A stretch of 64,000 nt of DNA. Source: an uncultured virus (IMG/VR IMGVR_UViG_3300009104_000003). Taxonomy: Duplodnaviria > Heunggongvirae > Uroviricota > Caudoviricetes. The stretch lies in the IMG/VR virus record IMGVR_UViG_3300009104_000003; one strand, written 5' to 3'. Below the pieces are notes generated by a model. It did not search any database. It was not told the origin of the DNA and was given only the letters and a program-made list of their open reading frames with translations. Of the stretch, positions 6,498 through 63,794 are shown piece after piece. The first letter of the stretch is position 1. Each line of letters opens with the position of its first letter. The position numbers and the translations under genes are program-made.

Positions 6498-8201
6498 TTA
6501 ACCTGCAGAACCAGCTATTTCAGTAAATGAAACGCCAGATCTGGTAGCTACAAAGTTTAAAGTAATATAATTAATAGATCTTGCAGGCTTGATATAAATA
6601 TCAGCTACAAAACTATTAGTGTCTATTACTTGACTTGTATTGTTGGTTTCATCGCAAATGACTGAAAAATCTGTCAGTCCTCTACGACCCTTGACATCTC
6701 TTAAGAAAGGCTCTACCAAATTCTTAAACTGAGCTCTTGTGAATTCATCGTTGAATTCGAACAATTGAGCTTTAGCTGCAGTTGATACTGCCTTCTCTAA
6801 AGTGATGAATAATCTACGTACATTAATACGATCAAATGCAGAAGGTTTTGCTAATAGGGTTTTATCTCCAAATAGCATAGTACCTTGTCCAGGTAATGAT
6901 ACTAAAGGATTAACTCTTCCCTTGTATAGAGTATCTCTATCCGCTTGGACAGGATTCCATGCAAGTTTAGTTATACCTAATAGTTGTCCTCTGCTTACAC
7001 CAGCTGGTGAATACCAAGCATCTGCAACTCTATCTGTATTAGCACATAATCCAGCAACGTGACCAGCTGCGCCTATCCAACGGTAAGTATCATTGTACTT
7101 ATCGTAAACATAAACTGCAGAAGAATCACATACTGCGTATGAGCTAGAAGTTAGACCATTTGCAAACGCCATAACATCCGTAGCAGGAGCAGAAGCCCCT
7201 TGGCTATCTTCGATTGGAGGTGAGACAAAAGCTACACAATCTTTTCTTGCGTTAGCAATAGAGATTAAGTCTTCAGCAATTGTTTCTGCTCCATTAGCAT
7301 CTGGGCAAGCAAACAATAAACCAACATCAACTGTTTCGGCATCTTCCAATAGGTCGTAACCTGTTGCAATCTCACCAACAGTAGGTGCGTTATCATCTGT
7401 TCCACCAGTTAACGAATCTTCAATAGCAGCCGTATGGCCAGCTATTGCAGTCGTAGCTGCTAATCTTAGATCAGCCCCAGCATTAGTTAATGTAGATGAA
7501 TGATCCATCCATCGTACGTAGTCGGAACCATTATTTACCACATCAACGTAGTAATTAGATGTTCCATCTGGGTTTTTAGCATCAGAAGCTTGTGAAGCAT
7601 ATGCAAATGTTTCTAAAACAGTACCTGCGGTACCACTAAATACTCCATCTTCATCTATAACTGCTACATGAACTTCATCACCTATCGACCCCTTACCAAG
7701 ATTCGCCGCGTACGTCGAAGTTCCTGGTGCACCATTGAAAGATGAGCTATAAGCCCAACCAGAAAAACTGGTGATTCCTTCAGTGATTAATGATACCTTC
7801 AAACTATTTCCTTTGACACCTGGATATTTAGCAGCCCAGTGACCAACGGCCCCTGCACCAGTATTATACCCTGAATCAACATAGTGAGTATCATTTTTAA
7901 TCAAAAGTCCGTTATCCGCCACACCTGTAGCATTTAAATGCCCAGACTGGACGCGAACTACTTTCAAAGCGTTGCCGTACTTTAAGAACGACGCGGCTGT
8001 AAGAAAGTATTTGTATGTATTGTCATCCGGAGCACCAAAGGTATCAGCTAAGCTCTGTTCAGAACTAATGCTAACAACTTCACCGACCGGACCCCAATTA
8101 AATGACCCAGCGAATCCACCAATGCTAGTAGATACGGCAGGTACTACAGCAGTTGCGTCAATTTCATTGACTTGAACTCCTGGTGATACTTGAAATGCCA
8201 T
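6498..8201 (-). CDS. gp18: Tail sheath protein
   Basis: MAFQVSPGVQVNEID, FNWGP, WYSPAG, GDKT, SAFDRINVRRLF, IKPARSINYITLNFVATRSGVSF. Confidence 0.97.
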   Translation of the reverse strand: MAFQVSPGVQVNEIDATAVVPAVSTSIGGFAGSFNWGPVGEVVSISSEQSLADTFGAPDDNTYKYFLTAASFLKYGNALKVVRVQSGHLNATGVADNGLLIKNDTHYVDSGYNTGAGAVGHWAAKYPGVKGNSLKVSLITEGITSFSGWAYSSSFNGAPGTSTYAANLGKGSIGDEVHVAVIDEDGVFSGTAGTVLETFAYASQASDAKNPDGTSNYYVDVVNNGSDYVRWMDHSSTLTNAGADLRLAATTAIAGHTAAIEDSLTGGTDDNAPTVGEIATGYDLLEDAETVDVGLLFACPDANGAETIAEDLISIANARKDCVAFVSPPIEDSQGASAPATDVMAFANGLTSSSYAVCDSSAVYVYDKYNDTYRWIGAAGHVAGLCANTDRVADAWYSPAGVSRGQLLGITKLAWNPVQADRDTLYKGRVNPLVSLPGQGTMLFGDKTLLAKPSAFDRINVRRLFITLEKAVSTAAKAQLFEFNDEFTRAQFKNLVEPFLRDVKGRRGLTDFSVICDETNNTSQVIDTNSFVADIYIKPARSINYITLNFVATRSGVSFTEIAGSAG

Positions 8202-8280
8202 CGCTTTATCCTCTCAAAAAGGTTTGTTTATAAGTTAAATTTATAATATTAAACATAATAAGGTTATTTTCACTCGTAAC

Positions 8281-8288
8281 TATTTATA
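8281..8288 (-). promoter_or_regulatory. T4-type late promoter TATAAATA upstream of gp18
   Basis: Exact consensus right after gp17 stop. Confidence 0.8.
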
Positions 8289-8289
8289 A

Positions 8290-9909
8290 TTAAAATAATC
8301 CTGTGGTCTTTGTATCTTCTTCGAACCAAACGTTTCCTTCGCCATCTCCAAATCCATCATCTTTCTTTTGACCATCATCTATAATTCCAAATGGAAGCAT
8401 ATCATCTTGTATTGCTTGTAATTGTTCTTTATATAACATATCTTTCATATCAATATTAGATATAGAAGTAAAAATATCTGTTGTGGTAAACCATCCAAAT
8501 AGTACTAGATTCATCATCAGATCATCATGATTAGGGGCAATAGCCATAAAGGATTTTCCCCTGGCTACAAAAGTACTCATTTCTATAATAGTTTGAGCAT
8601 CTCTTATTATTAATTTCTTTTGTTCAATTAGATCTTTTATAGTAGAACATCCTATACGTTTGACTCTTTGAGTCATTTGAGCACCAATAGCATTCTTTTT
8701 AATAGCTGATTCTACAAACATATTCTCATATTCAAGATCATAATATAATCCATTACATACTACCATACCTGCATCATTTGATTCAACTATTACATAGGCT
8801 TTATTATAAGTCATTGCATATTTGTATATAACATCTGGAAATAGCATAGGAGATATATTATTATCTCTAAATGTAGCTACTTGTTCAAAAGGATTAGTAG
8901 ATATATCTATTATATTAAATGTTGAATAATCTTGTCCTCTTCCTTTCGCTGTATCTACCATTAACAAATAATCATGTTCTTTTATTGGTTCTTTATATAC
9001 AAAAACATTCTCTTTAATATGTAATGGTTCAACACTTTTCTGAGATAATAGATAATTTGCTCCAATAAGTGTATTACCTCTACCATGAAATGTATTAGCA
9101 AACTCTTGTTCAAATTGCAATTCAGATGTATTCGATATAGTTTCTTCTTTCCATTTTTCATCCCTTCCTGGTACATCCCACCAATCTACTCTAAAGGGTT
9201 TAAATTCATTTGATCCTGTAGTTGCTCCTTCCCAAAGTTTATGATATATATTACCAATACCATTAGCTGTTGATGTAACAATAATTTGTGTATCTTTACC
9301 AGCCGTAACAACAGGATAGGTTGAGGTATAAAATTGTGCATCATTTTCTACAAAAGCAAACTCATCCAAGAATAAAAGATTGATTGATAATCCTCTAATG
9401 GACGAACCGCTTGTAGCCGCTGCTATAATTCGCGAATTGTTACTAAATTCTATACTCCCTTTATTAAGTGCTTTACATCCAGGCTGTAAAAAGAAGGGTA
9501 AGTTCTCGAGCGCGAGCGTTACACGCGCGAGCATCTCGCGAGCGACCGCGCCCTTGTTCGCGAGTATGGCTATAGTTTTTTCTGGATAGAAACATGCATA
9601 CCATAAAAGATATACAACAGAAGATATAGATTTACCACTTTGTCTACATGCTAGTATAATGGAAAATCTATTTTTATGGAAATGCTTAAACATTTTCTCT
9701 TGATAAGGATATAGGTCAAAGTTTATAAGACCTTCATCAAGAGAGATAATCTTTACATATTCACGTGCAAAATATGCAGGATCTTTCTGACACTTTTGGT
9801 ATTCTAGTATTTCTTTACGAGTAAAATCTGCAACAACACCATCTCTTTTGATAGAAGGGTTGCCTAAATATCCAAACTCGTTATTTTTAATCCTCTGCAT
9901 CGACATCAA
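8290..9909 (-). CDS. gp17: Terminase large subunit
   Basis: YLGNP, Walker A RQSGKS, Walker B LLFLDEFAF, STANG coupling motif, HDDLMM nuclease motif; true start may be 9900 or 9906. Confidence 0.97.
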   Translation of the reverse strand: MMSMQRIKNNEFGYLGNPSIKRDGVVADFTRKEILEYQKCQKDPAYFAREYVKIISLDEGLINFDLYPYQEKMFKHFHKNRFSIILACRQSGKSISSVVYLLWYACFYPEKTIAILANKGAVAREMLARVTLALENLPFFLQPGCKALNKGSIEFSNNSRIIAAATSGSSIRGLSINLLFLDEFAFVENDAQFYTSTYPVVTAGKDTQIIVTSTANGIGNIYHKLWEGATTGSNEFKPFRVDWWDVPGRDEKWKEETISNTSELQFEQEFANTFHGRGNTLIGANYLLSQKSVEPLHIKENVFVYKEPIKEHDYLLMVDTAKGRGQDYSTFNIIDISTNPFEQVATFRDNNISPMLFPDVIYKYAMTYNKAYVIVESNDAGMVVCNGLYYDLEYENMFVESAIKKNAIGAQMTQRVKRIGCSTIKDLIEQKKLIIRDAQTIIEMSTFVARGKSFMAIAPNHDDLMMNLVLFGWFTTTDIFTSISNIDMKDMLYKEQLQAIQDDMLPFGIIDDGQKKDDGFGDGEGNVWFEEDTKTTGLF

Positions 9910-10300
9910 TAATATTGTCCTTATCTAATAACATTCTTTGAAGCTCTGTAGTACTTCCTACAAATACATTGTTATTAGTAATTTCTCTCCTCACATCATC
10001 TTCGGTTAATTCTTTTTTATTCTTTTGAAGTTTCATTAGCTTATCAGTAATATCACCAATAGATTTTAGGTGATTAGATAATACTTCAAATGCGCGCGGG
10101 TGCTCGCTCTCGCGGGCGAGCTCGGCTAATGCATCCATTGATTGGGTACCAACACTTATAAGATCTTTATATGTTGCCCGTGAAAATTCATAATCATCCT
10201 TAATTTCTTTTTTATCTTTAAGGATTTCGTTTTCTTTTCTTTTTTCAGCTGGAAGATTTTTGGCCAGCCGGTCAGATATAGCTTGTTTTTTATCAATCAT
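9887..10300 (-). CDS. gp16: Terminase small subunit
   Basis: DYEFSR, A.ESEHPRAFEV, NNVFVGSTTELQRML. Confidence 0.93.
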   Translation of the reverse strand: MIDKKQAISDRLAKNLPAEKRKENEILKDKKEIKDDYEFSRATYKDLISVGTQSMDALAELARESEHPRAFEVLSNHLKSIGDITDKLMKLQKNKKELTEDDVRREITNNNVFVGSTTELQRMLLDKDNIIDVDAED

Positions 10301-18185: not shown

Positions 18186-21100
18186 TTATCCTTCTAATGT
18201 TTCTATTCTGGATTTTAAATCATCAATAATTGTTTGTTGTTCTTTCATTGCACTTATAAGTATTGGAACTAATCTTGAATATTTTAATCCATAAGATGTT
18301 TCATCTTCAGATAAATCTACTAAAAGGCTAGTATCGTTATTACTTCCAAAACCATTAGCTTGTTCTATAGTTAAAACTTCTTGTGATAATAATCCAACTT
18401 GTATTGAATCTTTTTTATGTGTTCCATCAGGAACGGCCGCTAAAATGTCTGCTGAAGTTCCAGCTGGTGTTATTAGATTTTCTCCTGTTTCATCCCATTC
18501 TTCTTCATCAACATACCAAACTCTTTTATCCCATTTATAAGTTACAGGACGCATGGCTTTTATCCAATCTAAACCGCCTGTAAAGTTAGTTATATCTGTT
18601 TTATCTCTTTCATCTGAACTAGCAATACTTGTATCAGCACAATAAAAATTAGTTATATTGTTGTCTCCTAAACATAGGATATTACTAGCTGTATTAACTT
18701 CCCCTGATGGTGAGGTTGATTTACCCGCTTGATAGCCTAATAATAAATTATTATTACCAGTGGTAATTTCCATACCGGCATCTTTCCCCAAACTTGTATT
18801 ATAATCGCCAGAAGTTGTGTGATACCCACCATAATGGCCAACATAAGTATTGCCATAAGCATTTGTTCCTTTACCTGAGCCTGTATTACCAAATGCATTC
18901 ATACCAATCGCGACATTGTGATAACCAACTATCGGTCCTCTTCCTGCACTTGCACCAATAAATACACTACATGATGTAGTTGCACTATTATAATCTGCTC
19001 CTGCACTATTTCCTACGAATGTATTACTACCACCAGATGTTGAACTTTCTCCTGCGCTTCTACCTATTATAGTATTATTAACTGCATTACCGGAAGTTCC
19101 ATAATTTGTTCCAGCATTATGTCCTATGAATACATGACCATAAGCAGTAGTAACGGCATCACCTGCGAATCCTCCAATAAATACATTTTCTGATCCGGTT
19201 TCAACGTTAGCACCGGCCGCAGATCCAAGAGCTGTATTATTGCTAGCTGTGCAATCTCTTAAAGCTGCATGTCCAACAGCCGTGTTATTACCGCCAGATA
19301 CGTTATATCGCATTGCAGTAAAACCAACTGCAGTACTTCCACTTCCAGTATTTTGGGTAGCCAAACACAATTTACCAACTGCAACATTTTCATTTCCGGA
19401 ACTAATATTCATTCCGGATTCATGTCCAATTGCGGTATTTCCAGAACCAGTGGTTAGATCATATAGAGTATCTCTACCCATTGCTACATTTTCACTACCA
19501 GATGAACCACTTTGCGCGCGTATTGAACCAGTTCCTATTCCTATATTATATGCACCAGTAGCCCATCTTCCGGAATCTGGACCTATACCAATGGCATTAT
19601 TAACAGTTGTTGGAAATTGAATTGAATTATCACCTATAGCTACATTATTTGATCCGTCTTGATTAGCTGCTAATGATGCTTGTCCTATGGCTACATTATA
19701 ATTACCGGATGTTATATCTTCTCCGGATTGAGATCCAAAACAATTATTTTGTGAACCACCTTCTAGATTTGTTAAAGAATTGTAGCCAACTGCAGTATTG
19801 TAATCTCCGCTTGTTATAGCATCAAGTGCTGTCGTTCCAACTGCCACATTCTTTTGTGCGTCATTTGTGGTTGATGATGGATCGTTACCAAGCCAGATTG
19901 AATTGGTTTCTACTAGACTTGTTACTCCACCACCACCTGCATCTTCCCAAGCTACTCCACTTCCTGTTGAAGTTAGTACTTGTCCATCACTACCTTGTGC
20001 ACCATTAATTTTAAAGTTGTCGGCATCACAATATCCTGTAACTTCTATACCATTATTATCAATGTATAATCTACGAGTTCCTTCGTATGCTCCTGTTGTT
20101 AAAGATGCTGTATAAAAAGAATGATTTGTTGCTGCACTTGTTGCATCTACACCACCACCATATCTAAGGAAATTGCCCCCAACATGGCCATTGATATATA
20201 AACCTGCAATATCACTTGTGCTTCCACTATCGTAGGGTATGCCCATAAGTTTAGCGTGTTTTTCAGCATCGTCAGTTCGGTTACTTGCCATTTTAAAATA
20301 ACCTTGAAGGTCAAGAGCCTGAGATGGACTCGAGGTTCCTATACCAACTTTGCCTGTATTATCAATAGCAATTGCAGTACCAGCACTGCCAGTGTCATTG
20401 TCTATATAAAAATAATTGTTATTACTAGTTTTTAGTTTCCAATTAGAAGTAGCAGTACCACTATTACTGCTTCTTAGTCTTATGTGAGCAGAACCATTAC
20501 CTGTATCTTCAACAAGAAGATCGCCAGCACCTGCTATATGTAGTTGATAGTCTGGAGAGGTTTCTCCTATACCAACATTTCCAGTTGAAGAATCCATAAA
20601 CATAAGTGCTGGTCTTGCACTCGCATGTCCACCATAAAAAATAAAATCATCTGATAAAGCTGATATTAATGGTGGTAAAGTTGCACTACCATTATCTTTT
20701 AGTTCTATTCCTGAATACGCATCTGTTGATTCAACTCTTAATGGTTGATTGTCTGAACTAGAAATATGTAAAGGTTTTGCTGGGCCCGTTGTTCCTATAC
20801 CAACATTTCCACCGTCTTCAATAACCATGTGGGTATTAGTACCATCGTGTATTCTTAATTCATTTGCAGAACCATCGTGATCTATAATTACTTGAGCAGT
20901 TCCAGCTTCTTGAAAATAAATACCTTTATCATGACTAGAACTAGCAGCATCTAAAGATATAAATGCATGATCTGAAGAATCAACATGGAGCATTCCTATA
21001 CTAGAAGTATGAGCTCCTGCCACTTCTAATAATACATCAGGAGCTGTATTTCCTATACCAACCCTATTATTTGAACCATCTACATATAAAGTATTTGTAT

Positions 21101-24800: not shown

Positions 24801-27266
24801 AGCTATTCCTAAATATTCATTAACATTGTCAGCACCAGATTTTAAATAAAGAACATCTTCACTAGCAGCTCCTGTGCTAGTTACAGATAATAAACTATCT
24901 GGGCTAGTAGTTCCTACACCAATCTTGTCGTTCCCACCATCAACAAAGAATATATTAGCGTTGTTGTTAGATTCAATTCTGAAATCTACATCTGCACCTG
25001 TATCATTAAAGGTAGCAGCTCCATCAAAATTACCACCATCACAAACAACTGTACCTGTTACATCTATACCACCCGTTACTGTGTCTAATTTCTTTGAATT
25101 ATCATAATAAAGACCTGTACCTCCATTAACAATAAATGATGCATAATATTCAGTTCGTGCAGCATTTCTAAAATAAATATTATCGGACTCTATAAACAGA
25201 TTTCCTGTTCCATTAGACATATAAGTATGAGTACCATCGTGTGAAATCTGTAAATCATCACCTGTTCCTAACTTAATAATTGCACTATCTGGCATATCAA
25301 TATGAGTTGTAGGACTTATAACTCCCGTAACTCCTAATGTTCCACCAATTGTTTGATTACCACTTACTGCTAAACTTGATAATGTTCCTAAAGAAGTAAT
25401 ACCTCCTTGTGTTGCATCAACGGATAGTGAATGAGCAATACCTTCACCTGAAGTTGCTCCTGTACTTGTTAATCCTGTACCAGCTGTAACGGTTGCTACA
25501 TAATTTCCTGTAGTATGCGTAGTTAAATCAACAGAATCTGCTTGGATAGCTGCTGTTCCTGTAACGTTACCTGATCCATCAAAACTTGCAGATGTCCATA
25601 CAACATCTCCAGTCATTCCTATAGTTCTACCAGTAGCCAGAGCTGTAGCTGTATCAGCATTTCCTGTGACAGCACCTTCTATATTAGCAACTAATGTTCC
25701 AGTCGCATATCCTGTACCACTTGTATTAACTGTTGTGGTCGGTACTGCCTGATTGTCTTTAAATAATTTCCATTTTCCTGAATCGGAAGCATCTCTGAAT
25801 AATCCTCCATAAAGGTCTTGTGAACCTGAGGTATCATACAGTCCGTATATTCCAATATCTACTGCATCAGCTGCGTTATTACCTGTAGCTAAAGATACTA
25901 AAGGATCTTCTACCGCCAGGGTTGCTGTATTTACGGTTGTAGTATCTCCACTTACCGTTAGATCTCCCGAAATTGTTACATCAGTTGGGAATCCTATTTG
26001 AATTTGGTTATTTGAAACTGTAGTTGCTATTTGATTAGTAGTACCAGCAATTGTTAGAGTTTCGCCAGTATTAAAAGTATCATTAGAACCTGAATCAGCT
26101 GATAAAGTAAAGCTTGTGCTTATTGCAGCTGTACTAGCAGCTGTCAAACGTCCTTGAGCATCAACAGTAATTACTGGAATAGCTGTTGAAGTACCATATG
26201 AACCTGCAGTAACTGCTGTATTAGCTAGTTTATCTGCTGTAATTTGATCATCGGCTATATGAATAGTGTCTATTGAACCATCTACATACTGATCTGAATC
26301 TATTGAATTAACAGACATATGAACCAAATCAATAGCTCCATTTGCAATTTCTGCACTATCAATAGCATCATCTGCCATTAAAGCATTTGTTATTTGACTG
26401 GCAGCTATATGAGCAGTATCTATTGAACCATCAACGTATTGATCGCTATCGATAGAGTTTACTGACATATGAGCTAAGTCTATTGCACCTGCAGCTATTT
26501 CATCACTGTCTACTGCATCATCTGCTAACATGGAGTTTTCCACTGATCCAGCTTGTATTGTAGCTGCAGCGGTTATGTTTCCACTACCATCAAATGAAGG
26601 TGATGTCCAAACAACATCTCCAGTCATTCCTATTGTTCTTCCTGTAGCTAGTGCTGTTGCTGTATCAGCATTACCCGTAACATTACCTGTTAAAGGTCCT
26701 GCAAAAGCATCTGAGGTGACTGTACCATCAAAGAATGCATCTTTAAATTCTACCGAACTTGTACCTAAGTCTATATCACTATCTGTTGAAGGAACAATAG
26801 CTCCATCAATAAATGTTACTTGGTTCGCGCCCGCGGCCGATATTGTTATAACATCAGAACCACTAAAGGTTATTGCAGTATTTGAATCTGCATCTCCTGT
26901 GATACTATCTAATTGAATATCACCAACATTAGTAATTGCTGAATCACTAAAATCAAGTGTACCCGTAACATCAAAGTTACCACCTATACTCATATCTCCT
27001 GTGACCGTTAAATTATCTGCCACAGTTGTTTCTGAGGTTGTATGTCCTATTGTTACTGCTATACCACTAGTTTCTGTAGCAATTTTTAATGCTCCAGTTC
27101 CATTAGTGATATAAGAATTTGTGCCATCGTGGTAGAGAGTTAAGTCACTTCCACCAGTGCCAATTACTATTTTATCGTTATCTGCGAATAATAACCCATC
27201 ACCTGCGGGTAATTCTTTGATTGCTAATGCGCTAGAATCTACGATTAATGGGTATCTATTTGCCAT
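21840..27266 (-). CDS. Long tail fibre with adhesin-like repeats and C-terminal intramolecular chaperone (S74-like), 1808 aa
   Basis: MANRYPLIVD N-terminus, DSDQYVDGSIDT repeats, ERMRIDSSGN, NxAxG repeats, SDKRDKNDI...PVTYRW...GLLAQDVE...YERFVPMLI. Confidence 0.88.
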   Translation of the reverse strand: MANRYPLIVDSSALAIKELPAGDGLLFADNDKIVIGTGGSDLTLYHDGTNSYITNGTGALKIATETSGIAVTIGHTTSETTVADNLTVTGDMSIGGNFDVTGTLDFSDSAITNVGDIQLDSITGDADSNTAITFSGSDVITISAAGANQVTFIDGAIVPSTDSDIDLGTSSVEFKDAFFDGTVTSDAFAGPLTGNVTGNADTATALATGRTIGMTGDVVWTSPSFDGSGNITAAATIQAGSVENSMLADDAVDSDEIAAGAIDLAHMSVNSIDSDQYVDGSIDTAHIAASQITNALMADDAIDSAEIANGAIDLVHMSVNSIDSDQYVDGSIDTIHIADDQITADKLANTAVTAGSYGTSTAIPVITVDAQGRLTAASTAAISTSFTLSADSGSNDTFNTGETLTIAGTTNQIATTVSNNQIQIGFPTDVTISGDLTVSGDTTTVNTATLAVEDPLVSLATGNNAADAVDIGIYGLYDTSGSQDLYGGLFRDASDSGKWKLFKDNQAVPTTTVNTSGTGYATGTLVANIEGAVTGNADTATALATGRTIGMTGDVVWTSASFDGSGNVTGTAAIQADSVDLTTHTTGNYVATVTAGTGLTSTGATSGEGIAHSLSVDATQGGITSLGTLSSLAVSGNQTIGGTLGVTGVISPTTHIDMPDSAIIKLGTGDDLQISHDGTHTYMSNGTGNLFIESDNIYFRNAARTEYYASFIVNGGTGLYYDNSKKLDTVTGGIDVTGTVVCDGGNFDGAATFNDTGADVDFRIESNNNANIFFVDGGNDKIGVGTTSPDSLLSVTSTGAASEDVLYLKSGADNVNEYLGIAFETAIGGNGPHAAIRAYNGPSSANDSYLALLTTTDGGTLTQGLIQDHAGRVLIGITESDFQNNYFQIEGTSSTNSSMSLFRNAASAVGPYLNFGKSRGASVNSDTVIQDDDNLGSIMFYAADGTDRNSSSAYITAAIDGTPGSDDTPGRLVFGTTSDGGNGATERMRIDSSGNLFLGMTSGHHAGSGRINFEMKGTSSAIIGFDIGGTASTYMYDSGQSGALEINHPASVYLNADTNIRFATGSNAEAMRINSDGNIGIGTTSNSHPLRIVQATSAAGLHMPLKINTSSYNDNGYYSLIGFGIENTAGAGAAIGFNRTAGYDRGSLVFMTRSASTHTNPVAGDIRMTIDKDGTVDIAGKLDVNNLTIAGAQGSDGQVLTSTGSGVGWEDASGGGGGGVTGTVGGANFTNSILVGHTTTGTLSSADGNVGIGANAMNAITSGDQNVFIGYNSGTDATDASYNVGVGALSLENVIGNSGASQGMGNVAVGQATLQACTTGSGNVAIGSYDGARQQPLKANTTGSGNVAIGTGAMQSNVTGSGITAVGKNAMTSFAASGDNRNTAIGHGALFTFNGNPGFCTVVGEYAGYSLTGTSVGYNTFVGTHSGYQLGSGSQSNTAIGARAMQGGAGGATGNVAVGMDAGYSLTSADYVTAVGLNAVNANQTNDYLTGVGYNSLRYITSGNDACAVGANTLSSSSNTNANGNHAFGYHAFHGVTTGGDGLVAVGRQAGNSQTTADQSVYVGKSAGWGANSGQSVGVGRRALQGVSTGNGNTAIGFQTMYSGPGTGANNTYVGAYCGQSTSGSNNFGLGYQAAYSGSPGGAPAGNNEGYLGDENITTINAQVGITAASDKRDKNDIEPLTLGLEFINKLEPVTYRWDKRTKYIKKYMLDLPKDDPDFVDLDDVVHDGTHTEPQLHAGLLAQDVEEIEQSYGFDKEDKTALVTTLSGDGKAYSLQYERFVPMLIKSVQELSTQVESLKEEIEELKND

Positions 27267-27884: not shown

Positions 27885-28790
27885 CTAAGTCCAGTTGTTT
27901 CCTGCTACAGCAATATAAACCGCTTGCATAGTCCAAACTCCAGAAGTGTTAGTTGTAACTGCGGGTTCTTTAATGATAACAACACCAGAGGCACCTGCTG
28001 TACTATTGATACTGTTACCAGAACCTCCGCCACCACTACCTGTGTTTACAGTTGGCGCTGATGATGACTGATTGTTACCAGCACCATTACCACCACCACC
28101 AGTTCCACCAGTTCCACCAGATTGACTAACATCACCACCGCCTCCACCACCACCAGCTCTTGTTACAGATGAACCTGTGATTGAAGAAGCCGTACCAGCA
28201 CCACCGTGACCACCGTGGCTATAATTGGTCCCATCAGTCTGCCTACTATGACCACCAACTGCGCCAGCACCTCCGCCGCCGCCTCCGCCGCCAAGTGCGT
28301 TAGCTCCACCGCCACCTCGACCGCCACCAGCATTACCTTGACCAGAAGGTGATGCAGCACCGCCTCCTAAACCGTTTGCGTAACCATTTCTACCACCAAC
28401 ACCACCGCCAGAGCCACCAGCATCACCTGCCCCTTGGAAACCTGCTCCGTATCCACCGCCTTCGGAAGTTATTGAAGAAAAAACTGAATCTGATCCGTGC
28501 ATTGCAGAACTATTTCCTGCATTACTTTGAGCTCCACCTGCACCTACAGTAATTGAGTAGTCGGTTGAACTTGAAACCGAGAAACCACTAGCTGTCCTAT
28601 AACCACCAGCTCCGCCTCCACCAGAAACAGTGCTTCCAGCACCACCACCACCAGCAATAACTAAATATTCAACTTCGGTTGTTAGCGCGCCTGTTGTAAG
28701 AGTACCACTTGAGTTAAATGTACTTATAACTTCAGCTTGTGAACTTGGCACATTACTTTTGCCTATTATTCCACCATTAGCACTAGCCAC
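27885..28790 (-). CDS. Glycine-rich virion protein (301 aa)
   Basis: VEYLVIAGGG, GGGGAGGYR, YSITVGAGG, NTGSGGGG, GASGVVII - typical phage glycine-rich domain. Confidence 0.8.
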   Translation of the reverse strand: MASANGGIIGKSNVPSSQAEVISTFNSSGTLTTGALTTEVEYLVIAGGGGAGSTVSGGGGAGGYRTASGFSVSSSTDYSITVGAGGAQSNAGNSSAMHGSDSVFSSITSEGGGYGAGFQGAGDAGGSGGGVGGRNGYANGLGGGAASPSGQGNAGGGRGGGGANALGGGGGGGGAGAVGGHSRQTDGTNYSHGGHGGAGTASSITGSSVTRAGGGGGGGDVSQSGGTGGTGGGGNGAGNNQSSSAPTVNTGSGGGGSGNSINSTAGASGVVIIKEPAVTTNTSGVWTMQAVYIAVAGNNWT

Positions 28791-36452: not shown

Positions 36453-36784
36453 TATCGTGTCACTCCAGGTGTAACTTCTAATTGTCCTTCTAAAACTCTA
36501 GTAACAGTTCCTCCTGAACTTGTTATCTCAACATCATATACATATCTTCCAGCTACTAGAGCATTGGTCTGTACTGGCGTTAATGCTATAGTTATTTCAC
36601 CTTGTGTTGCATTCGATACACTAGCTGAAAAAGCTACAGATGTAGTAGAGTCATAAGTCTTTCTTATTTGTCCTGCTACAGTATAACCTGTTAATGTAAG
36701 TATATTATCTTCTGTGTCTGTTATATCAACACTAGCCGAGAAAGTACTTCCTTGATCAACCGTTAAATTAGATATTATCGCCAT
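36452..36784 (-). CDS. Conserved virion protein (110 aa)
   Basis: NLTVDQGSTF, GRYVYDVEIT, RVLEG...VTPGVT. Confidence 0.75.
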   Translation of the reverse strand: MAIISNLTVDQGSTFSASVDITDTEDNILTLTGYTVAGQIRKTYDSTTSVAFSASVSNATQGEITIALTPVQTNALVAGRYVYDVEITSSGGTVTRVLEGQLEVTPGVTR

Positions 36785-46945: not shown

Positions 46946-48571
46946 TTAGAATTCAATAATCAGTTTAATATCTTCAATTTGTGAGGATGACCTATTGATT
47001 GCATCTCTATTTTCTAGGAATAAGAGTTGACCTGAATTCATTTTTACTTCTGGACCATAACCATTCGTGGCTTGTCCATACCAAGTTGTTCCTGAAGTTG
47101 TATTTAATACTGAACTTCCACCTGAAGGTAAGGTTCCTGTAATAGTATCTCCAGATACAAAATCAGCATATCCTGTTTTTGAATTCTGAACATAATATAA
47201 AACCTTATTAGTAGTATCTATTTCAACTAAATAAGCTTTAGCTCCAGAGCTTGATCCAACAATAACTTGATCAACTGCAAATCCAGAAACTGAACCAGCA
47301 CTAGCTAATACTAAAGCTTTTCTTGCTCTTAGTGTAGTAGCTGTAGCAGTAACATCTGTTCCAAAGTTTTGAGGTTTTTTGATTAATGATATTTGTCTAA
47401 AATCGTTTCCTACGGTAAGATCTCCACCTTCTGAGCCTGATAGTTGTGAATTAACTGCAACATAAAATGCTCCAAGTTCTTTTACAGGATCTATTCCGTG
47501 TCCTCCCGAAGGAGTAATAATTGCTCTTCCAGCTGCAGCAGTACCGCCACCAGATGTAACGCTACCAATAAGTAAATCTGCAACAGTATATCCATCACCT
47601 TTATTAGCTTCTGTACCAGAACCAGCACTTGAAACTGTGATTGCCGTAACTGCTCCTCCAGAAACAGTAGCTACCGCGAGCGCGTTAGTACCATCTCCTC
47701 TAACAATAACGTCGGGAGCAGAAACATATCCTGAACCTCCAGCAGTGACTTCATATCTTTCTATACCAGCTACTGCAGTAAGTGAGGTATCAGCTGAATT
47801 TATTTGAGCTGTTTGATTAGCATAGTTAACATCTGTATCTGCTAATCTACCAAAAGTTAATGTAGTACCATTAGCAACTGCTCTTGCAGTTGATAAAGTA
47901 AGTGTTGTTCCATCAATAGCTGCAACTGTATCTCCGGCTGTTATTCCAGAACCAGTAACTAACATACCAGCTACAATATATTCATTAGCAGCTGTTAGCG
48001 TAACAGTTGTACTTGAAGATCCACCATTACCTCCAGTAGAGGTTGATACAGTTGGTTCAGTTCGAACTGGTAGATATGAAATAGTTAAAAATTTCTCTGC
48101 ATCAGTTACTGAAACTGTATACATATATTTCCATTTGTAAGAATCAGATTCTGCAGTTGGATCTGTATTAATATGTGTTGGTTCAACAGTTGATTGTGTT
48201 CCTGGTGAGGATATACACTTATAAACTTTATATTCTGAAGTAACGACATAAAATGCTTTATCGTATATTGCAGAATCATCTGAATCCCAAGCAGTATAAG
48301 TTGTTCCTGAAGTCCAAGTGTGCCGTGGTACGATGTGTGCTACATCTGCAGAGGCTATCTTTTTCATACCAATCATATTCTGGTATGCTTCATGAATATC
48401 ATCTATTCTGTCTTGTGGAGTGAAGGGTGTGGTTGCATCCGTTAAATCTGAGGTTGCTGTAGACCAAACGTCTGTTTTACCAATCCCTACATATACTGAA
48501 GAACCGGCAACATCCTCTTTAAAATTCTCTGCATTTACCACTCTAAAGGGGGTTGTTACTATTGCTGTCAT
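46946..48571 (-). CDS. gp8: Baseplate wedge subunit
   Basis: AIVT..FRV.NA, VYKC, YKWKYMY, GGHG.DPVKELG, NDFRQI, ENR..I.R...Q.EDIKLIIEF. Confidence 0.9.
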   Translation of the reverse strand: MTAIVTTPFRVVNAENFKEDVAGSSVYVGIGKTDVWSTATSDLTDATTPFTPQDRIDDIHEAYQNMIGMKKIASADVAHIVPRHTWTSGTTYTAWDSDDSAIYDKAFYVVTSEYKVYKCISSPGTQSTVEPTHINTDPTAESDSYKWKYMYTVSVTDAEKFLTISYLPVRTEPTVSTSTGGNGGSSSTTVTLTAANEYIVAGMLVTGSGITAGDTVAAIDGTTLTLSTARAVANGTTLTFGRLADTDVNYANQTAQINSADTSLTAVAGIERYEVTAGGSGYVSAPDVIVRGDGTNALAVATVSGGAVTAITVSSAGSGTEANKGDGYTVADLLIGSVTSGGGTAAAGRAIITPSGGHGIDPVKELGAFYVAVNSQLSGSEGGDLTVGNDFRQISLIKKPQNFGTDVTATATTLRARKALVLASAGSVSGFAVDQVIVGSSSGAKAYLVEIDTTNKVLYYVQNSKTGYADFVSGDTITGTLPSGGSSVLNTTSGTTWYGQATNGYGPEVKMNSGQLLFLENRDAINRSSSQIEDIKLIIEF

Positions 48572-50620: not shown

Positions 50621-52473
50621 TAGGTTCTAAACCTTGAAGTAGTTGTATAATCTATAGAACCTGAAGAACCAGCTGTAGAGATAGTATCTATTTCTGCTGT
50701 GACTGACATTCTTGCCCCATCAACTGCTAAAATTTCTTCTCTCTTTGGAGCAACATCTAATGAATCAGGTGTTACGGTTAATCGAATTTCAGTAGTATCA
50801 TCTGGGGTAAAATTATTTAATACTACTACGCCAGTTGAAGGAGTAATTGTTCCACAATTATCTATTGTAGTTACTTTAATACTATCAACTATTTTATAAG
50901 AATATATTTGTCTATCTGTAGAACCTGAAATTGCTTTATCTGCAAAATAATTATCAATACCACCATATTTCCAGGCAGTAGAACTTATACAAGATTCATC
51001 AACACCATTTGGAGTAAAGATTGATCCAGGGAAAGTAAGTGTAAAATTATTTAATACGCCAACTGTTGCAATTGGTGTTATATTTTTAAATATAAAAGGT
51101 CTACAGGTAGAAGACAATATTGATGGATCAGAGCTATCAATTTGTTTTAATATTCCAGAATGCCTAAATACTCCATCAAATTTATTTAAGTTATTAAGGC
51201 TATAATCATCAACTGTATCTTTTACAACAGAAACTAGATCTGCAGAAGTTCTATCTGTTAGATTAGGATTATATTTAAAATATATATCTAATTCTAAATA
51301 ACTATAATCTGGATCTATGATTTCTGGCGTAACAGATACAACATTTTTTCCTTTAAGGATAGAATTAATAATAGATATTTTTTCATCTGGATCTAATGTT
51401 GTTGCAGTTGTTGGTTTAATACAGATAAAAGCTTTTCCATAATCAGGTATAGCTTGATCTTCTCCGCCCCAAGTATTAATAGAAGAAATATTTGTAAAGT
51501 TTCTTTCGATAATAGATTTATAATCATCTGCCGTAACTGCTCTATTTTGAGCAGTAAATGCTATTGGAGCATTATATCTAATTGATTCTATAGTTTCTTG
51601 ATCAGCTCCACCTGCTGCATTACTGACAGTTGTTACTGCAGTATTAGAAAATCCACCAATTGAATCTACCATAGTAAATGTAGTAGCTCCATTAGAATCT
51701 TTACCATTTGAGTGTACATAATCTAGAGTAACAATATTATTATTAGCAGGTTTAGTACCAATAACCCCATCGCCCATATATAACTCATAAAATCCATTTG
51801 AATTTTCTTGAAGATGATAAATCTTAGAAGTTGATACTACATTTAATAGAGTAGTAAATTTAATAAACAGATCATAGTTTGAAGATTCTTCATTCGCCTG
51901 TACGCGCACGCGGAGCGTGGTCGTGTCCACGTTCTTATGAGGAATTTGATGCTTTTGAATTGCTATATCATTATCAACTCTATACTTAATTGAATTATAA
52001 GTTCCTTCAGCAATTTCTACATTATTATATGTATATTTGTTACTAATTAATGATGCAGTTTGGGCTTCTAAAGCAACATATCTATAAGTTAATCCTCCTA
52101 CTGAAGTAGAAAATTTAGCTCCTCTAGGTATTGTAAGAGAAGTAGGTTTTTCTGCTGTTTCACCCGTAACATCTAAAACAATATTAATTTTAGCTCGAGC
52201 TGCTAACTCGGATGTAGGAACGTATCCTAACATCCGAGCTCTCGAGACAGCGTTTCCTCTTATTTGAGCAGAATCAAGGAAAGCTTCATTTAATGATAAA
52301 TGTGCGGCCATGGCATTATAATGTGTATTATATGCTAGAACATCTAGTAATACATTTAATCCTGACCCATCAAAATCATAATCATTAAATACGGTTTGTT
52401 GTTTTAGATAATTTTTTAGATTTTGTTTTATATCATCAAAATCTAATTCGGTTACATTTAAATTTGTTGCCAT
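50620..52473 (-). CDS. gp6: Baseplate wedge subunit
   Basis: LDFDDIK, DYDFDGSGL.VLLDVLAYNTHY, E.FLDSA..R, QNRAVTADDY, WGGED. Confidence 0.95.
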   Translation of the reverse strand: MATNLNVTELDFDDIKQNLKNYLKQQTVFNDYDFDGSGLNVLLDVLAYNTHYNAMAAHLSLNEAFLDSAQIRGNAVSRARMLGYVPTSELAARAKINIVLDVTGETAEKPTSLTIPRGAKFSTSVGGLTYRYVALEAQTASLISNKYTYNNVEIAEGTYNSIKYRVDNDIAIQKHQIPHKNVDTTTLRVRVQANEESSNYDLFIKFTTLLNVVSTSKIYHLQENSNGFYELYMGDGVIGTKPANNNIVTLDYVHSNGKDSNGATTFTMVDSIGGFSNTAVTTVSNAAGGADQETIESIRYNAPIAFTAQNRAVTADDYKSIIERNFTNISSINTWGGEDQAIPDYGKAFICIKPTTATTLDPDEKISIINSILKGKNVVSVTPEIIDPDYSYLELDIYFKYNPNLTDRTSADLVSVVKDTVDDYSLNNLNKFDGVFRHSGILKQIDSSDPSILSSTCRPFIFKNITPIATVGVLNNFTLTFPGSIFTPNGVDESCISSTAWKYGGIDNYFADKAISGSTDRQIYSYKIVDSIKVTTIDNCGTITPSTGVVVLNNFTPDDTTEIRLTVTPDSLDVAPKREEILAVDGARMSVTAEIDTISTAGSSGSIDYTTTSRFRT

Positions 52474-58736: not shown

Positions 58737-59188
58737 TGAGTTACAAAGGCAGATACAAAATTACTAAACCAGAGAAATATGTTGGGGATTCTACCAATGT
58801 TGTATATCGTTCTCTCTGGGAAAGACAATCATTTAAATGGTGTGAGAACAATCCAAACGTTAAAGCATGGAATAGTGAAGAGGTAGTTATACCATACATT
58901 GCACGAGAAGATAAAAGAATGCATCGTTATTTCGTAGATCTATTAATAGAAATGAAAAATGGTGATACATTTCTAATAGAAATTAAACCTAAAAGCCAAA
59001 CAAAACCCCCTAAACAACCTAAGAGAAAGACCAAAAAGTATCTTAAAGAAGTTATGACCTATGTGAAAAATCAAGATAAGTGGGAAGCAGCTGATAAGTT
59101 TGCTCAACATAAAGGTTGGAAATTTCAAGTCTGGACAGAAGATACTTTGAAAAATTTAGGCATCAAACTTCTGAAGTCCCAGGTATAA
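58736..59188 (+). CDS. gp4: Head completion nuclease
   Basis: Start corrected to MSYKGRY; KY.GD...VVYRSLWER, W.SEE..IPY, HRYF.D, IEIKP, NQ.KW.AA. Confidence 0.92.
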   Translation: MSYKGRYKITKPEKYVGDSTNVVYRSLWERQSFKWCENNPNVKAWNSEEVVIPYIAREDKRMHRYFVDLLIEMKNGDTFLIEIKPKSQTKPPKQPKRKTKKYLKEVMTYVKNQDKWEAADKFAQHKGWKFQVWTEDTLKNLGIKLLKSQV

Positions 59189-59191
59189 ATA
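59184..59191 (+). promoter_or_regulatory. T4-type late promoter TATAAATA (for gp2)
   Basis: Exact consensus overlapping gp4 stop, 5 nt upstream of gp2 ATG. Confidence 0.8.
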
Positions 59192-59196
59192 GATAT

Positions 59197-59790
59197 ATGG
59201 CAAGTTTATTTGATACATTACAAGCTGGAGCATATAGAGCTAATATAGTTCCTAGAACTAAGAAATCTAGGGCTTGGTTTCAAGCGCGCGTACGTGAGCT
59301 CGGGGACGTATCTAGAGCTAAAATAATGAAAGATGATCAGCTGAAAGTACGTGCTCAACCCAAGATAGGTGATATGTGTATGTATGTTTATGATCCTAAA
59401 TTAAAAGCCGAATTACCATATTACGATAAATTCCCTATGTCAATAATGGTACAACCAGCACCAGGGGGATTTCATGCATTGAATTTGCATTATCTTTCTC
59501 CAGGAGTAAGAGCTTTATTTCTAGATGAATTAATGGGATTAGCACCTAAAAAATTAGCAGAAACAACTAGACTAACAAGATTAAAATATGATCTATTAAA
59601 AGGTGCAACAAAATATAAAGAATTTAAACCTTGTTTTAAACATTATCTTATGTCACATGTTAAATCTAAAATTAATAGAGTACCAATGACCGAATGGGAA
59701 ATTGCAGTATTCTTACCAGTAGATGAATTCAAAAAAGTATCTCGAGATACTGTTTGGAGATATTCTAGAAAATCTATATACGGAAAATAA
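59197..59790 (+). CDS. gp2: DNA end protector protein
   Basis: Start corrected to MASLFD; YDPK.K..LPYYD.FP, LNLHYL.P..R, FKPC.KHYL, W.IA.FLP. Confidence 0.92.
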   Translation: MASLFDTLQAGAYRANIVPRTKKSRAWFQARVRELGDVSRAKIMKDDQLKVRAQPKIGDMCMYVYDPKLKAELPYYDKFPMSIMVQPAPGGFHALNLHYLSPGVRALFLDELMGLAPKKLAETTRLTRLKYDLLKGATKYKEFKPCFKHYLMSHVKSKINRVPMTEWEIAVFLPVDEFKKVSRDTVWRYSRKSIYGK

Positions 59791-61345: not shown

Positions 61346-61731
61346 TGGCAGAACACGATAGATTTCATGGCGATATGAGCCGGAATGAAGTGGAAATGGA
61401 CTTATCAAAGTTCATGGAAATGCTTGCGGAGAATGGAAAATTAAAAGATAGGATAAGAGAATTAGAAGATATACATGATCAAAATCCATGGCAAAAATGG
61501 ATTTACCTATCTAAAATGATCGATTCTTGGCGTATATGGCCAAGAGCATTCTTAAGTGTTTACATATTTTTAATATATTATGTAGTAATGTGGTTCTTAG
61601 ATCTAGAGGCTCCAACAATGGAACAATCTGGATTACTATCAATATTGGTAGGTGCAGGAGCAGCATGGTTTGGATTGTATGTTAACAGCGCAGCAAAAGA
61701 TCATGCGGCAGATATATCAATCAAAAAATAG
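61345..61731 (+). CDS. Membrane protein with two predicted TM helices (128 aa)
   Basis: DSWRIWPRAFLSVYIFLIYYVVMWF and QSGLLSILVGAGAAWFGLY hydrophobic segments; TAATG coupled to gp51. Confidence 0.7.
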   Translation: MAEHDRFHGDMSRNEVEMDLSKFMEMLAENGKLKDRIRELEDIHDQNPWQKWIYLSKMIDSWRIWPRAFLSVYIFLIYYVVMWFLDLEAPTMEQSGLLSILVGAGAAWFGLYVNSAAKDHAADISIKK

Positions 61732-61739
61732 GAAAATAA

Positions 61740-63794
61740 ATGGCTGACGATAAAACAGATGCTGAAAGCCAAAGAGGTAAAACAGGTAAATCAAAGCCTG
61801 ACCCAGTCTCGGGTAGTACTCAAAAAGAATTACTATCTGAAATAAAAGAAACTCTGATTAAACAATCAGAGAACCTTGGCGAATCCCTAGGAAGAGATAC
61901 GATTAATGTTCGTAGACATCTCCTTGAAATGAAGAATATGACTGCTGCGCAGTTAGAAAATCAAAAAGCCCTTAATAAAACCTTCGGTGCTCAACTTGAA
62001 AATGAAGAGGAAAAGCTAGAAGGAGAATCAGTTGAAGGTCTTAAAGAGGAAGAAAAATCCGATGATATGCAAAAGATCTTTGAGGATATAAGAGATTCTC
62101 TAAAAGGACAACCAGAAGCTTTAGCTAAAGAAGGATCAAAAGAATCCGGAAAATTAGCTGAAGGTCTAATGGGTGGTATGGGCAAGATGCTGGGCGGCTT
62201 AGGTATAGGTGTTGGAGCTGCTGGACTCGGAGCTGCAGCTGTTATAGGAGCAGGAGCTTATCTATTAAATGTATTAGATGATATAGATTCTGAAAAGATA
62301 AAAGAAAATGTTGCAAACCTATTAAGTATTAGTGATCTAGTTGAAGCAGATGGGGATTCATTTATAGGAGAAGGAAGTAAATTCTTCTTAGCCATGCTTG
62401 GTTTAGGCCTTGGATTAGCAGCATTTGCAATAGGTTCGGCCGCGACCATGGGCGCGTCAGCTTTAAGTCCAGTAGTAGAAAAATTTACAGGAAAGAAATG
62501 GACTGATGATGTTAAAGATAATGTTATAACCCTTTTAAGTATATCTGATGAAGTAGGTGGTGCTGGTGAAATGCTTAAAGATGGTGGTGCATTCTTCCTT
62601 GCAATGACTGGTTTAGGTCTTGGATTAACAGCTTTTGCTATTGGTCAAGGAGCTTCAGCAGTTGCCTCAGGACTTTCGGCCGGTGTAGAGATGTTTACAA
62701 AAGAAGGAGACTGGGCAGAAAAGATAAAGAAAGATGTTATAACATTATTATCTATTTCAAAAGAGCTAGGTGGTGCTAAAAATCTTATGGGAGAAAGCGG
62801 TGCATTCTTCCTTGCAATGACAGGTCTTGGATTAGGTTTAGTAGCATTTGCAATTGGTAAAGCTGGATCCGGTGTTGGTGATGCAATTACATTGTTCCAA
62901 GGTGAAAATTTTGCAGAGGATATTAAAGCAGAAGTAGAAACACTATTATCCATATCACAAATAGAAGGAATGGGTTGGGATACAACTAAATTCATAGCTG
63001 TTATGGGTGGATTAGCTGCAGGTCTAGTAGCATTTTCTTATGGTAAAGGCATGGCTGGATTAGCTGATGCAATAACTAAATTCTCAGCTGGTGATAATTT
63101 TGCTGAAGATATTAAAAGAGAAGTAGCAACACTATTAACCATTGGTGATTTACCTTCAGCAACATTAGAAAAAACTACAAAAACAACTGCCATATTAGTA
63201 GAATTAGCTGCAGGTCTAGCTGCCTTTGGCGGTGGTACATTTATTGGAGCATTAGGTCAAGCCATGGCAGCTGTTGTAAAATTCTTTTCAGGTGAAAAAG
63301 GTCCAGTAGAACAAGCGCTTATCTTAGCAAATAATGCTGATCAAATTGATAAAGGAGTTGATTCTTTAGAAAGATTTAGAAATGTTTTAACTGATTTCCA
63401 AGGATTAGGTGATATAACATTTGATATGGATACGGAGCAAATGGCTGAGGATCTATTGGACGCTACAAAGGTATTTGAGGTAGCTTTAGAAGGTGGAATT
63501 GATTATAGAGGATTCAATACAGAAGTTAAGGGATTACTTAATATAGAAGGAATAGATAGGGTTACTGAAGAAATTAATCTATTAAAATCCTTATTTGCTC
63601 CAATTCAGACTACTGGTTTAGAATTAGTTGCTGCTGGTAATCCTGCTTTAGCGACTGCCGGAGGACCTACTTCTGTTGATCAATCTGTCTTCTCACCAAC
63701 AAGTTTAACTACTAGTACAAACATCACTAATTTAGCTTCTATACATTCAACACCAGATTCATCTGATACGACTAATTCTTTAAAGATTGGATAA
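61740..63794 (+). CDS. Probable tape measure protein (gp29-like), 684 aa
   Basis: Charged helical N-terminus followed by repeated Gly/Ala-rich hydrophobic units (FFLAM.GLGLGL.AFAIG, V.TLLSI); position after gp26/gp51. Confidence 0.65.
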   Translation: MADDKTDAESQRGKTGKSKPDPVSGSTQKELLSEIKETLIKQSENLGESLGRDTINVRRHLLEMKNMTAAQLENQKALNKTFGAQLENEEEKLEGESVEGLKEEEKSDDMQKIFEDIRDSLKGQPEALAKEGSKESGKLAEGLMGGMGKMLGGLGIGVGAAGLGAAAVIGAGAYLLNVLDDIDSEKIKENVANLLSISDLVEADGDSFIGEGSKFFLAMLGLGLGLAAFAIGSAATMGASALSPVVEKFTGKKWTDDVKDNVITLLSISDEVGGAGEMLKDGGAFFLAMTGLGLGLTAFAIGQGASAVASGLSAGVEMFTKEGDWAEKIKKDVITLLSISKELGGAKNLMGESGAFFLAMTGLGLGLVAFAIGKAGSGVGDAITLFQGENFAEDIKAEVETLLSISQIEGMGWDTTKFIAVMGGLAAGLVAFSYGKGMAGLADAITKFSAGDNFAEDIKREVATLLTIGDLPSATLEKTTKTTAILVELAAGLAAFGGGTFIGALGQAMAAVVKFFSGEKGPVEQALILANNADQIDKGVDSLERFRNVLTDFQGLGDITFDMDTEQMAEDLLDATKVFEVALEGGIDYRGFNTEVKGLLNIEGIDRVTEEINLLKSLFAPIQTTGLELVAAGNPALATAGGPTSVDQSVFSPTSLTTSTNITNLASIHSTPDSSDTTNSLKIG

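Follow-up and report, generated by a model that had tools for sequence, protein, structure and literature searches.

CpG-dense, G/C-coded patches in the structural genes of an AT-rich marine T4-like phage: a possible trace of GC-biased repair

The 64-kb stretch of DNA analysed here (the window, IMG/VR record IMGVR_UViG_3300009104_000003) is, by its PHROG matches, the structural module of an uncultured marine T4-like myovirus. Scattered through its AT-rich genes are short patches, here called islands, in which nearly all free codon positions are G or C and the dinucleotide CG (CpG) is crowded. These patches are a real and repeatable pattern at the level of DNA. What kind of force would write them? 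The data require one that acts on DNA and favours G and C, especially alternating C and G, over tracts of 14-60 bp. The force acts in one clade of phages, in all gene classes, and at positions that recur but are dispensable. The reading that is tentatively preferred here is a drive from A/T to G/C base pairs, most likely the GC-biased short-patch repair of recombination heteroduplexes.

The window has a GC content of 35.5% and a CpG observed/expected ratio of 0.53. Across its 42 open reading frames (ORFs), G or C fills 15.7% of third codon positions (GC3), and AGA serves as the arginine codon 399 times. The first-pass annotation of this DNA had picked out twelve CG-packed patches, and every one of them was found where it had been placed; they are 7-60 nt long, with GC fractions of 0.70-1.00 and between three and 14 CpG each. 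A blind scan of the window, in which 20-nt windows with at least four CpG and a GC fraction of at least 0.70 were kept, returned 11 islands: ten of the twelve listed patches and a glycine-repeat patch at 28262-28299. The patch at 7704-7717 and the 7-nt one at 19514-19520 fell below the threshold.

Could composition and codon usage alone produce such patches? When synonymous codons were shuffled within genes, 500 shuffles gave 1.34 +/- 1.11 islands with a maximum of seven, so that the observed 11 stand well clear of the codon-shuffled null. The total island length is 402 bp, against 30.9 bp in the shuffles, and there are 11 runs of at least six consecutive G/C-ending codons, against 0.73 (maximum four in 300 shuffles). 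Islands ascertained by GC3 only number 20, against 7.8 +/- 2.4 with a maximum of 17. Ascertainment by GC content only gives 15 islands against 9.6 +/- 2.3, a weak excess because glycine-rich GGY runs are counted too.

Assembly or sequencing artefacts, for which the first-pass annotation had allowed, are refuted as a reading of these data and deserve practically no weight, since contigs from other samples and studies carry the islands. An IMG/VR contig from another sample (L001), 99.2% identical to the window over 4,865 nt, has the gp16 and gp17 islands. Near-identical islands, those of gp6 and gp8 among them, occur in further IMG/VR contigs (L083-L085 and G001), and in the Logan assemblies contigs of a second sample and of two other studies run right across the gp16 island, the gp17 island, or both. 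A contig from an RNA library of another sample covers the gp18 island with no differences, although this may be DNA carry-over.

PHROG matches name gp23, gp22, gp21, gp20, gp19, gp18, gp17, gp16, gp15, gp14, and gp13 in the window, together with several fibre proteins, a gp8-like protein, gp6, gp25, gp5, gp2, and a baseplate hub protein. The gene names gp18, gp17, gp16, gp8, gp6, and gp2 given by the first-pass annotation agree with these matches. Its "tape measure" gene (ORF 61740-63794) lies where a tail-length protein would be expected; the ORF has no family match and the name is unverified. By its large terminase, the nearest isolate is Phage C48C1, with 67% amino-acid identity, and cyanophages and the pelagiphage Mosig stand at ~45%. 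The islands and the patches considered with them are the following, with CpG given as the number realised out of those possible for the peptide.

7704..7717, minus strand: small island in the tail sheath gene gp18 (ORF 6498-8201), codons 162-166, TCG ACG TAC GCG GCG; GC3 5/5, CpG 5/5.
9505..9565, minus strand: largest island, in the large terminase gene gp17 (ORF 8290-9909), codons 115-135, peptide ILANKGAVAREMLARVTLALE; GC3 17/21, CpG 14/16, three GCTCGC on the coding strand.
10087..10130, minus strand: island in the small terminase gene gp16 (ORF 9887-10300), codons 57-72, peptide AELARESEHPRA; GC3 11/16, CpG 8/10, two GCTCGC, one on each strand.
19514..19520, minus strand: GCGCGCG in a fibre/spike ORF (18186-21494), written CGC GCG; at 7 nt too short alone for an island, and missed by the CpG/GC scan and by the GC3-only scan.
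26817..26846, minus strand: island in a fibre ORF (21840-27266), codons 143-148, TCG GCC GCG GGC GCG AAC; CpG 5/5.
28262..28299, minus strand: glycine-run patch in ORF 27885-28790, GGC GGC GGA GGC and onwards; absent from the earlier list and not counted with the CpG islands because it is GG/CC-rich through its glycine codons.
32749..32807, minus strand: island in a fibre ORF (30578-34309), in the third copy of a 32-residue tandem repeat, peptide YTGPSAAEVRAHISAGTG in G/C-ending codons; GC3 10/14 over the shared peptide, CpG 9/10.
32864..32905, minus strand: internal control in the second repeat copy of the same ORF, codons 469-482 (from which the coordinates were derived), YTGPSAAEVRAHIS in A/T-ending codons; GC3 1/14, no CpG.
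32969..32998, minus strand: island in the first repeat copy of the same ORF, ACG GAC GCG GAC GCG CGA GGC (TDADARG); CpG 6/7.
38847..38880, minus strand: island in a fibre/baseplate ORF (36784-41475), codons 866-877 (HANAAAG); CpG 5/6.
47665..47684, minus strand: island in the gp8-like baseplate wedge gene (ORF 46946-48571), AAC GCG CTC GCG; CpG 4/4.
51893..51931, minus strand: island in the baseplate wedge gene gp6 (ORF 50620-52473), codons 180-193, core CGC GTN CGC GTA CAG GCG; CpG 8/10.
59283..59308, plus strand: island in the DNA end protector gene gp2 (ORF 59116-59790), codons 57-64, GCG CGC GTA CGT GAG CTC GGG GAC; contains a 13-nt alternating purine-pyrimidine run.
62435..62460, plus strand: island in ORF 61740-63794 (no family match), TCG GCC GCG ACC ATG GGC GCG; CpG 5/6.

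Is it the protein that dictates these codons? The fibre ORF 30578-34309 provides an answer from within the phage, in three tandem repeats of 32 residues (window 32713-33001, residues 437-532). The identical 14-residue peptide is written with one G/C-ending codon out of 14 in copy 2 and with ten out of 14 in copy 3, only 32 codons apart, and copy 1 carries an island of its own. Because the two codings share protein sequence, gene, transcript, and expression level, the cause of the island codons is not at the protein level. The YT..A..R..IS part of the repeat is coded differently in each copy. The avoidance of direct repeats was considered as the reason for the two codings and rejected: in the adjacent VTDSGGDGSLAY part, copies 1 and 2 keep ~29 identical nucleotides, therefore repeats are tolerated. 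Part of the GC-coded version of copy 3 is also found in a distant fibre (L260) of 62% identity.

The choice of codons inside the islands, counted over 315 nt, is peculiar. Alanine is written GCG 22 times and GCC five times (68 and 114 elsewhere), and leucine CTC eight times and CTG never (42 and 40 elsewhere). All ten arginines are CGN, with neither CGG nor AGG, and glycine is GGC eight times and the rarer GGG once. Island peptides realise 74 of their 86 possible CpG, compared with 996 of 10,676 in all genes, a difference that is inflated by ascertainment on CpG. The claim that the islands are written purely synonymously is right only in part: codon positions 1 and 2 are raised in GC in five of eight islands relative to orthologues without an island, with flanks near 0, and the gp2 island encodes an Ala/Arg peptide where relatives are Lys-rich. 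Nor are the islands consistently tied to conserved protein segments. Those of gp17, gp16, and gp6 lie at the 85th-94th percentile of conservation, and those of gp18a, gp8, and gp2 at the 9th-26th.

Are such islands a habit of T4-like phages in general? Comparators and relatives were scored with the identical scan and codon-shuffled null.

Prochlorococcus phage P-SSM3: 0 islands, null 0.58.
Pelagiphage Mosig: 1 island, null 0.81.
C48C1 (43% GC): 22 islands, null 26.
T4 (L175, 75-125 kb): 9 islands, null 3.96 +/- 1.46; a mild excess made up of minimal-length patches only.
Relative G007 (59 kb, 34% GC): 15 islands, null 1.73 +/- 0.75.
Relative G008 (43 kb): 6 islands, null 1.31 +/- 0.58.

The island excess is thus specific to a clade and genome-wide within it, and not a general T4-like trait. 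In G007 and G008, both diverged from the window, the islands lie in genes for UvsW, a gp41-like helicase, gp32, dCMP deaminase, a thymidylate-synthase-like protein, a peptidase, and proteins of unknown function, and two patches fall within no ORF of 80 or more residues. No islands were found in the relatives L179 and L243 (21 kb each). AT-rich related loci totalling 1.46 Mb, a set with near-duplicates among it and with 31 loci that had been found through the island pattern, hold 138 islands clustered at recurrent gene positions.

At those positions the state of an island varies from lineage to lineage. The full gp17 island is present in four of 76 relatives retrieved by protein, with 17-18 G/C-ending codons of 21 and nearly identical nucleotides; others have only its first or second half, and most have 2-9 G/C-ending codons of 21. 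In a quick tree, whose careful search is unfinished, the full form falls in two separated subclades of one clade of 26 rows. The gp16 island occurs in ten of 67 rows, independently of the gp17 island, and two relatives (L058 and L063) extend it upstream. Its bearers have a serine written AGC, where most close relatives without the island have TCN; single silent steps cannot convert TCN to AGC. This split suggests that the patch has been transferred. In gp6, 14 of 56 rows have a GC3 of at least 8/14 at the island, and one clade that has AGA ACA AGA and, further on, GCT at the residue 187 site has an island at about residue 88 instead. The gp8 island is kept in L084 and L085, which are 99% DNA relatives, and appears as AAC GCG ATC GCG in L087. 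The comparison that the first-pass annotation had proposed gives a divided answer: islands recur at orthologous positions, but most relatives encode the same peptides of gp17, gp16, and gp6 with AT-rich codons. An essential role is not supported by this, nor by the 14-residue peptide that this phage codes both ways.

How well are the silent sites of an island kept among its bearers? Identity at third positions was compared in protein-retrieved loci only, the gp17 bearers being four lineages. It is 0.83 in the gp17 island against 0.62 in its flanks, and 0.79 against 0.64 for gp16. For gp6 the values are 0.71 and 0.69, so that this island is no better kept than its flanks, and the idea of an exact sequence constraint everywhere is not supported. 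The degree to which bearers keep the exact sequence is moderate, which suits a drive.

Two groups of genes in the island-bearing relatives may be mentioned here. In G007 (L337 4450-8292), genes for an N6/N4-type DNA methylase, a weakly matching thymidylate-synthase-like protein, an asparagine-synthase-like amidotransferase, and a dCMP deaminase follow one another; judged by these matches, the row could be a pathway for modification of nucleotides or DNA bases, and perhaps bears on how the islands are read. In G008 (L338 5311-11545), CsgF-like, CsgG-like, and FecR-like genes and one for a CHASE2-adenylate/guanylate cyclase stand among the early genes, and the cyclase gene has two islands, one of them 58 nt long.

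Do the islands share a signal? Enrichment of k-mers relative to codon shuffles revealed no motif common to all islands, only CG-rich words: CGCG occurs 44 times against 19.4, CGGCCG nine times against 1.3, and CGCGAG/CTCGCG eight times against 1.9. The suggestion that the islands are Z-DNA-prone failed as a general reading. Alternating purine-pyrimidine runs of at least 8 nt number 137 where 149 are expected, and most islands are interrupted; CpG-bearing alternating runs of at least 10 nt number seven against 1.6, the longest being 14 nt. The idea of a "second code" laid over the genes is a possible reading, and part of it is supported. A force at the nucleotide level, separate from the protein code, is backed by the distance to the codon-shuffled null, from the recurrence at orthologous positions, and from gp16 and gp17 silent sites that are more alike than those of their flanks. 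A single code is not supported, as the islands share no motif.

Where did the GC-rich codons come from? Short patches converted from a relative of high GC, or remnants of an ancestor richer in GC, would explain why island codons are like those of high-GC codon usage, and the wider family does span 31-50% GC, with the nearest isolate, C48C1, at 43%. However, when viral contigs were scanned with the second half of the gp17 island as query, the patch was found in 31 loci, and 31 of 31 have 31-35% GC; a high-GC donor of the gp17 patch was rejected, there being no copy with GC-rich flanks among these loci. The residues that the patch encodes are those of the AT-rich near clade (A-V, L-A-L-E) and not those of the outgroups (A-T, L-M-L-E). 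At the gp17 site C48C1 has 13 G/C-ending codons of 21, no higher than its flanks (29/50), and the relatives with the highest GC among 80 gp17 loci (40-46%) have 9-13 of 21 there, in different codons. A preference of 8:0 for CTC over CTG is, moreover, atypical of most high-GC bacteria. Import or inheritance of GC-rich DNA is accordingly very improbable. Given AT-rich contigs throughout, near-clade residues, and a C48C1 site no richer in GC than its surroundings, the patches arose within AT-rich genomes, against the mutational grain.

Two other origins were considered and rejected. An inserted mobile GC cluster would bring extra DNA, and none is present relative to homologues: the islands are in frame and align codon for codon, with no gap at gp17, gp16, or gp6. 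A burst of deamination on a single strand was dismissed because the changes are not strand-coordinated; as read from aligned gp17 codons, A-to-G, T-to-C, and transversions are mixed on one strand.

How might a repair bias have written the islands in situ? Within this highly recombining T4-like clade, diverged phages that infect a cell together would form heteroduplex DNA, in which transition mismatches (G:T and A:C) would be fixed in short patches with a bias to G:C, especially at CpG. Tracts with a few gained G/C sites would be over-transmitted; they would grow at their edges, spread between lineages, and be lost again, and the island itself would need no function. We infer the heteroduplex repair, its bias, and a CpG-specific enzyme. 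The drive is favoured because it explains the patchiness, the half forms, the growth at edges, the spill-over into non-silent sites, and the limit to one clade, which is as expected of a repair habit, and because it needs no function. A single island does occur in full, in half, in extended form, or not at all among relatives whose flanks are saturated. GC-biased gene conversion gives clustered, biased substitutions, as in human accelerated regions and in the link between GC3 and recombination in bacteria. The islands are like its products in having A/T-to-G/C changes dense over tens of bases, silent and some non-silent, which are clustered beyond a composition-preserving null and arise regardless of codon position or gene class; the lack of a motif, the turnover between lineages, and the highly recombining genome also fit. 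They differ in being shorter, in favouring CpG and GpC over GG and CC, and in recurring at the same codons in diverged lineages. A second model is Vsr, which repairs T:G mismatches at methylated sites in E. coli and over-transmits the site-bearing allele in phage lambda crosses. Context-specific correction of T:G to C:G over a few bases would likewise yield a drive that favours CpG, but there is no Vsr-like or cytosine-5 methylase gene in the ~100 kb of relatives that were annotated.

Several observations weigh against repair bias. The islands have 74 CG steps and 61 GC steps, against 53.2 +/- 3.6 and 46.6 +/- 3.0 in random G/C-ending recodings, and GG and CC steps together are depleted (41 against 70.3 +/- 5.0); none of 5000 recodings was as extreme, and the bias has the same direction when islands are ascertained by GC content only. 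The equal favour for G and C that GC-biased gene conversion should produce was therefore not found. A repair enzyme with CpG context must be assumed, and the sole DNA-modifying enzyme in the annotation of the relatives (~100 kb) is of the N6/N4 methylase type. At 14-60 bp, the tracts fall short of the usual length of conversion tracts. Among the gp17 patch loci, L166 seems to have lost four adjacent G/C codons, therefore conversion is not strictly one-way. The recurrent positions and the raised silent identity in gp16 and gp17 fit selection too. At the level of titles and listings, a literature search gave no paper on biased gene conversion in phages; it gave none on islands of this kind in phages either.

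The chief competitor gives the islands a function as DNA: they would be CpG-dense duplex patches of maximal stability, there to be recognised by a protein of phage or host or to serve as recombination anchors, and the gene 16/17 pair would be a pac-like region for the small terminase. This is possible, although on balance doubtful, and the same doubt attaches to the broader claim that the clade keeps genome-wide CpG-saturated patches, spaced a few kb apart in genes of every class, as a true DNA-level signal, to which the amino-acid code is locally bent. Positions recur across lineages, and the silent sites of gp17 and gp16 beat their flanks. The edges of the patches, as read from the gp17 rows, fall where the G/C-ending codons end, and adjacent silent sites vary. 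The favoured CG and GC steps stack most stably, by nearest-neighbour values, and the gp6 clade without the residue 187 island has another one at about residue 88. If the islands are a signal, their uses could include terminase loading at genes 16 and 17, barriers to an AT-binding silencer or nuclease, and the anchoring of recombination between diverged genomes. To our knowledge, no protein is known to bind them. For packaging, the precedent comes from T4, where gp16 prefers as its pac site the last 200 bp of gene 16, at the 3' end (PMC3012670). In the window, genes 16 and 17 contain the two largest islands, ~400 nt or less from the end of gene 16, and five of the seven copies of GCTCGC lie in 9512-10121, inside these two islands. 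The pac site of P1 has hexamer repeats. However, GCTCGC is not enriched window-wide (seven copies, 5.6 expected), a repeated short motif in or beside the small terminase gene is a trait of only two of ~12 islands, and conservation in relatives with the same terminase, which a pac site should have, was not found. The listed Logan contigs give no piled-up genome ends, though contigs could not reveal any. The gp16 and gp17 islands are rare and occur independently, therefore neither can be essential. Most relatives do without them, and the packaging role is a candidate lead for the gene 16/17 pair only. For the islands as a whole, the absence of an island-wide motif, a gp6 island no better kept than its flanks, and spacing that is irregular by eye in the scan lists of the window and its relatives all argue against recognition sites. 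A drive without function explains the whole set at least as well as the functional readings do.

Two further readings place the cause elsewhere. Action through the messenger RNA, in which clusters of unusual codons or stable structure slow ribosomes for folding or block RNases, is rather unlikely. It would suit position-specific clusters of genome-rare codons, several of which lie in helical Ala/Arg-rich segments, and the GC-rich stretches do fold more stably than their AT-rich surroundings (-10.6 to -26.9 kcal/mol). However, none of ten islands beat dinucleotide shuffles (z from -1.20 to +0.88), no island has an Rfam match, and nothing like a terminator coincides with the islands in 5-12 kb. 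The codons track CpG and not rarity, given GGC over the rarer GGG at 8:1 and CTC over the equally rare CTG at 8:0, whereas a pause cluster should be enriched in the rarest codons whatever their sequence. AAC, GAC, CAC, and GGC share a tRNA with their A/T-ending twins. The same peptide should always be clustered, and within one gene the fibre repeat codes it both ways; the clusters are missing from most relatives, and two islands of relatives lie outside ORFs of at least 80 residues. Escape recoding is hardly probable: here conserved AT-rich targets of a sequence-directed weapon (homing endonuclease, CRISPR, or antisense RNA) would have been rewritten at each of their free positions, and the resistant patch would then have been spread by repair-templated conversion. 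The large islands of gp17, gp16, and gp6 do lie in conserved segments, two-fold codons offer G/C as the only silent alternative to A/T, and patches move between backgrounds. On the other hand, the segments around the small islands are variable, many weapons would be called for by ~10-15 targets per 60 kb, and no endonuclease gene adjoins the islands in the PHROG annotation of the window. Such escape does not predict a preference for CpG among the G/C alternatives, and independent escapes should differ where the bearers share codons.

Other known systems resemble the islands in part. Conserved clusters of rare codons, reportedly described by Chaney et al. in 2017, are likewise position-specific, genome-rare, and common to some homologues, but the island codons are chosen by CpG, include codon positions 1 and 2, and write one peptide both ways. 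The GC clusters of yeast mitochondria and the palindromic elements of Rickettsia are insertions with palindromic structure. Like the islands they are short and GC-rich in a very AT-rich genome, some within genes; the islands differ in being homologous codons rewritten in frame, with no change in length and no special fold. In the tail-fibre genes of T-even phages, Tetart et al. in 1998 are said to have described conserved motifs that mediate recombination, crossover points that are defined in both protein and DNA. One fibre island is partly common to a 62%-identical fibre, as such motifs would be, but the gp17 island marks no crossover, identity to the window being alike upstream and downstream in 31 of 31 loci.

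Some features of the window and its relatives stand apart from the islands. ORF 27885-28790, in which the glycine-run patch lies, has long glycine runs written as GGT/GGC/GGA repeats, with several GC-rich patches between 28135 and 28622, and matches a PHROG of unknown function. A gene for a 2OG-Fe(II) oxygenase (13276-13992) lies between the neck and fibre genes, as it does in cyanophages and pelagiphages. The hexamer GTTACG/CGTAAC is present in 32 copies against 12.9 in codon shuffles (z 5.1) and bears no relation to the islands. Two copies lie ~6 kb past the end of the window, in a promoter-like intergenic region of the same phage (L341 3020-3045, G001), beside repeated AAAAAGTTGA units. The surrounding intergenic stretch (L341 2860-3140) also has a GC-rich patch at 2920-2963, direct repeats, and a good promoter-like site with -35 and -10 elements; the stretch may serve in early control, or mark a boundary between modules.

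The islands are best filed as clustered biased substitution, or else as synonymous-site elements. If repair bias made them, biased gene conversion would have left clear footprints in a virus, and synonymous conservation in phage genes should be taken as function only with caution. Were they signals, abundant ocean phages would carry a further layer of information in their DNA, hidden in the choice of codons, with a bearing on packaging, on recombination between diverged phages, or on the evasion of host DNA-binding defences. On either reading, the islands are sharp markers, easy to score, by which the exchange of alleles among wild phages can be followed.

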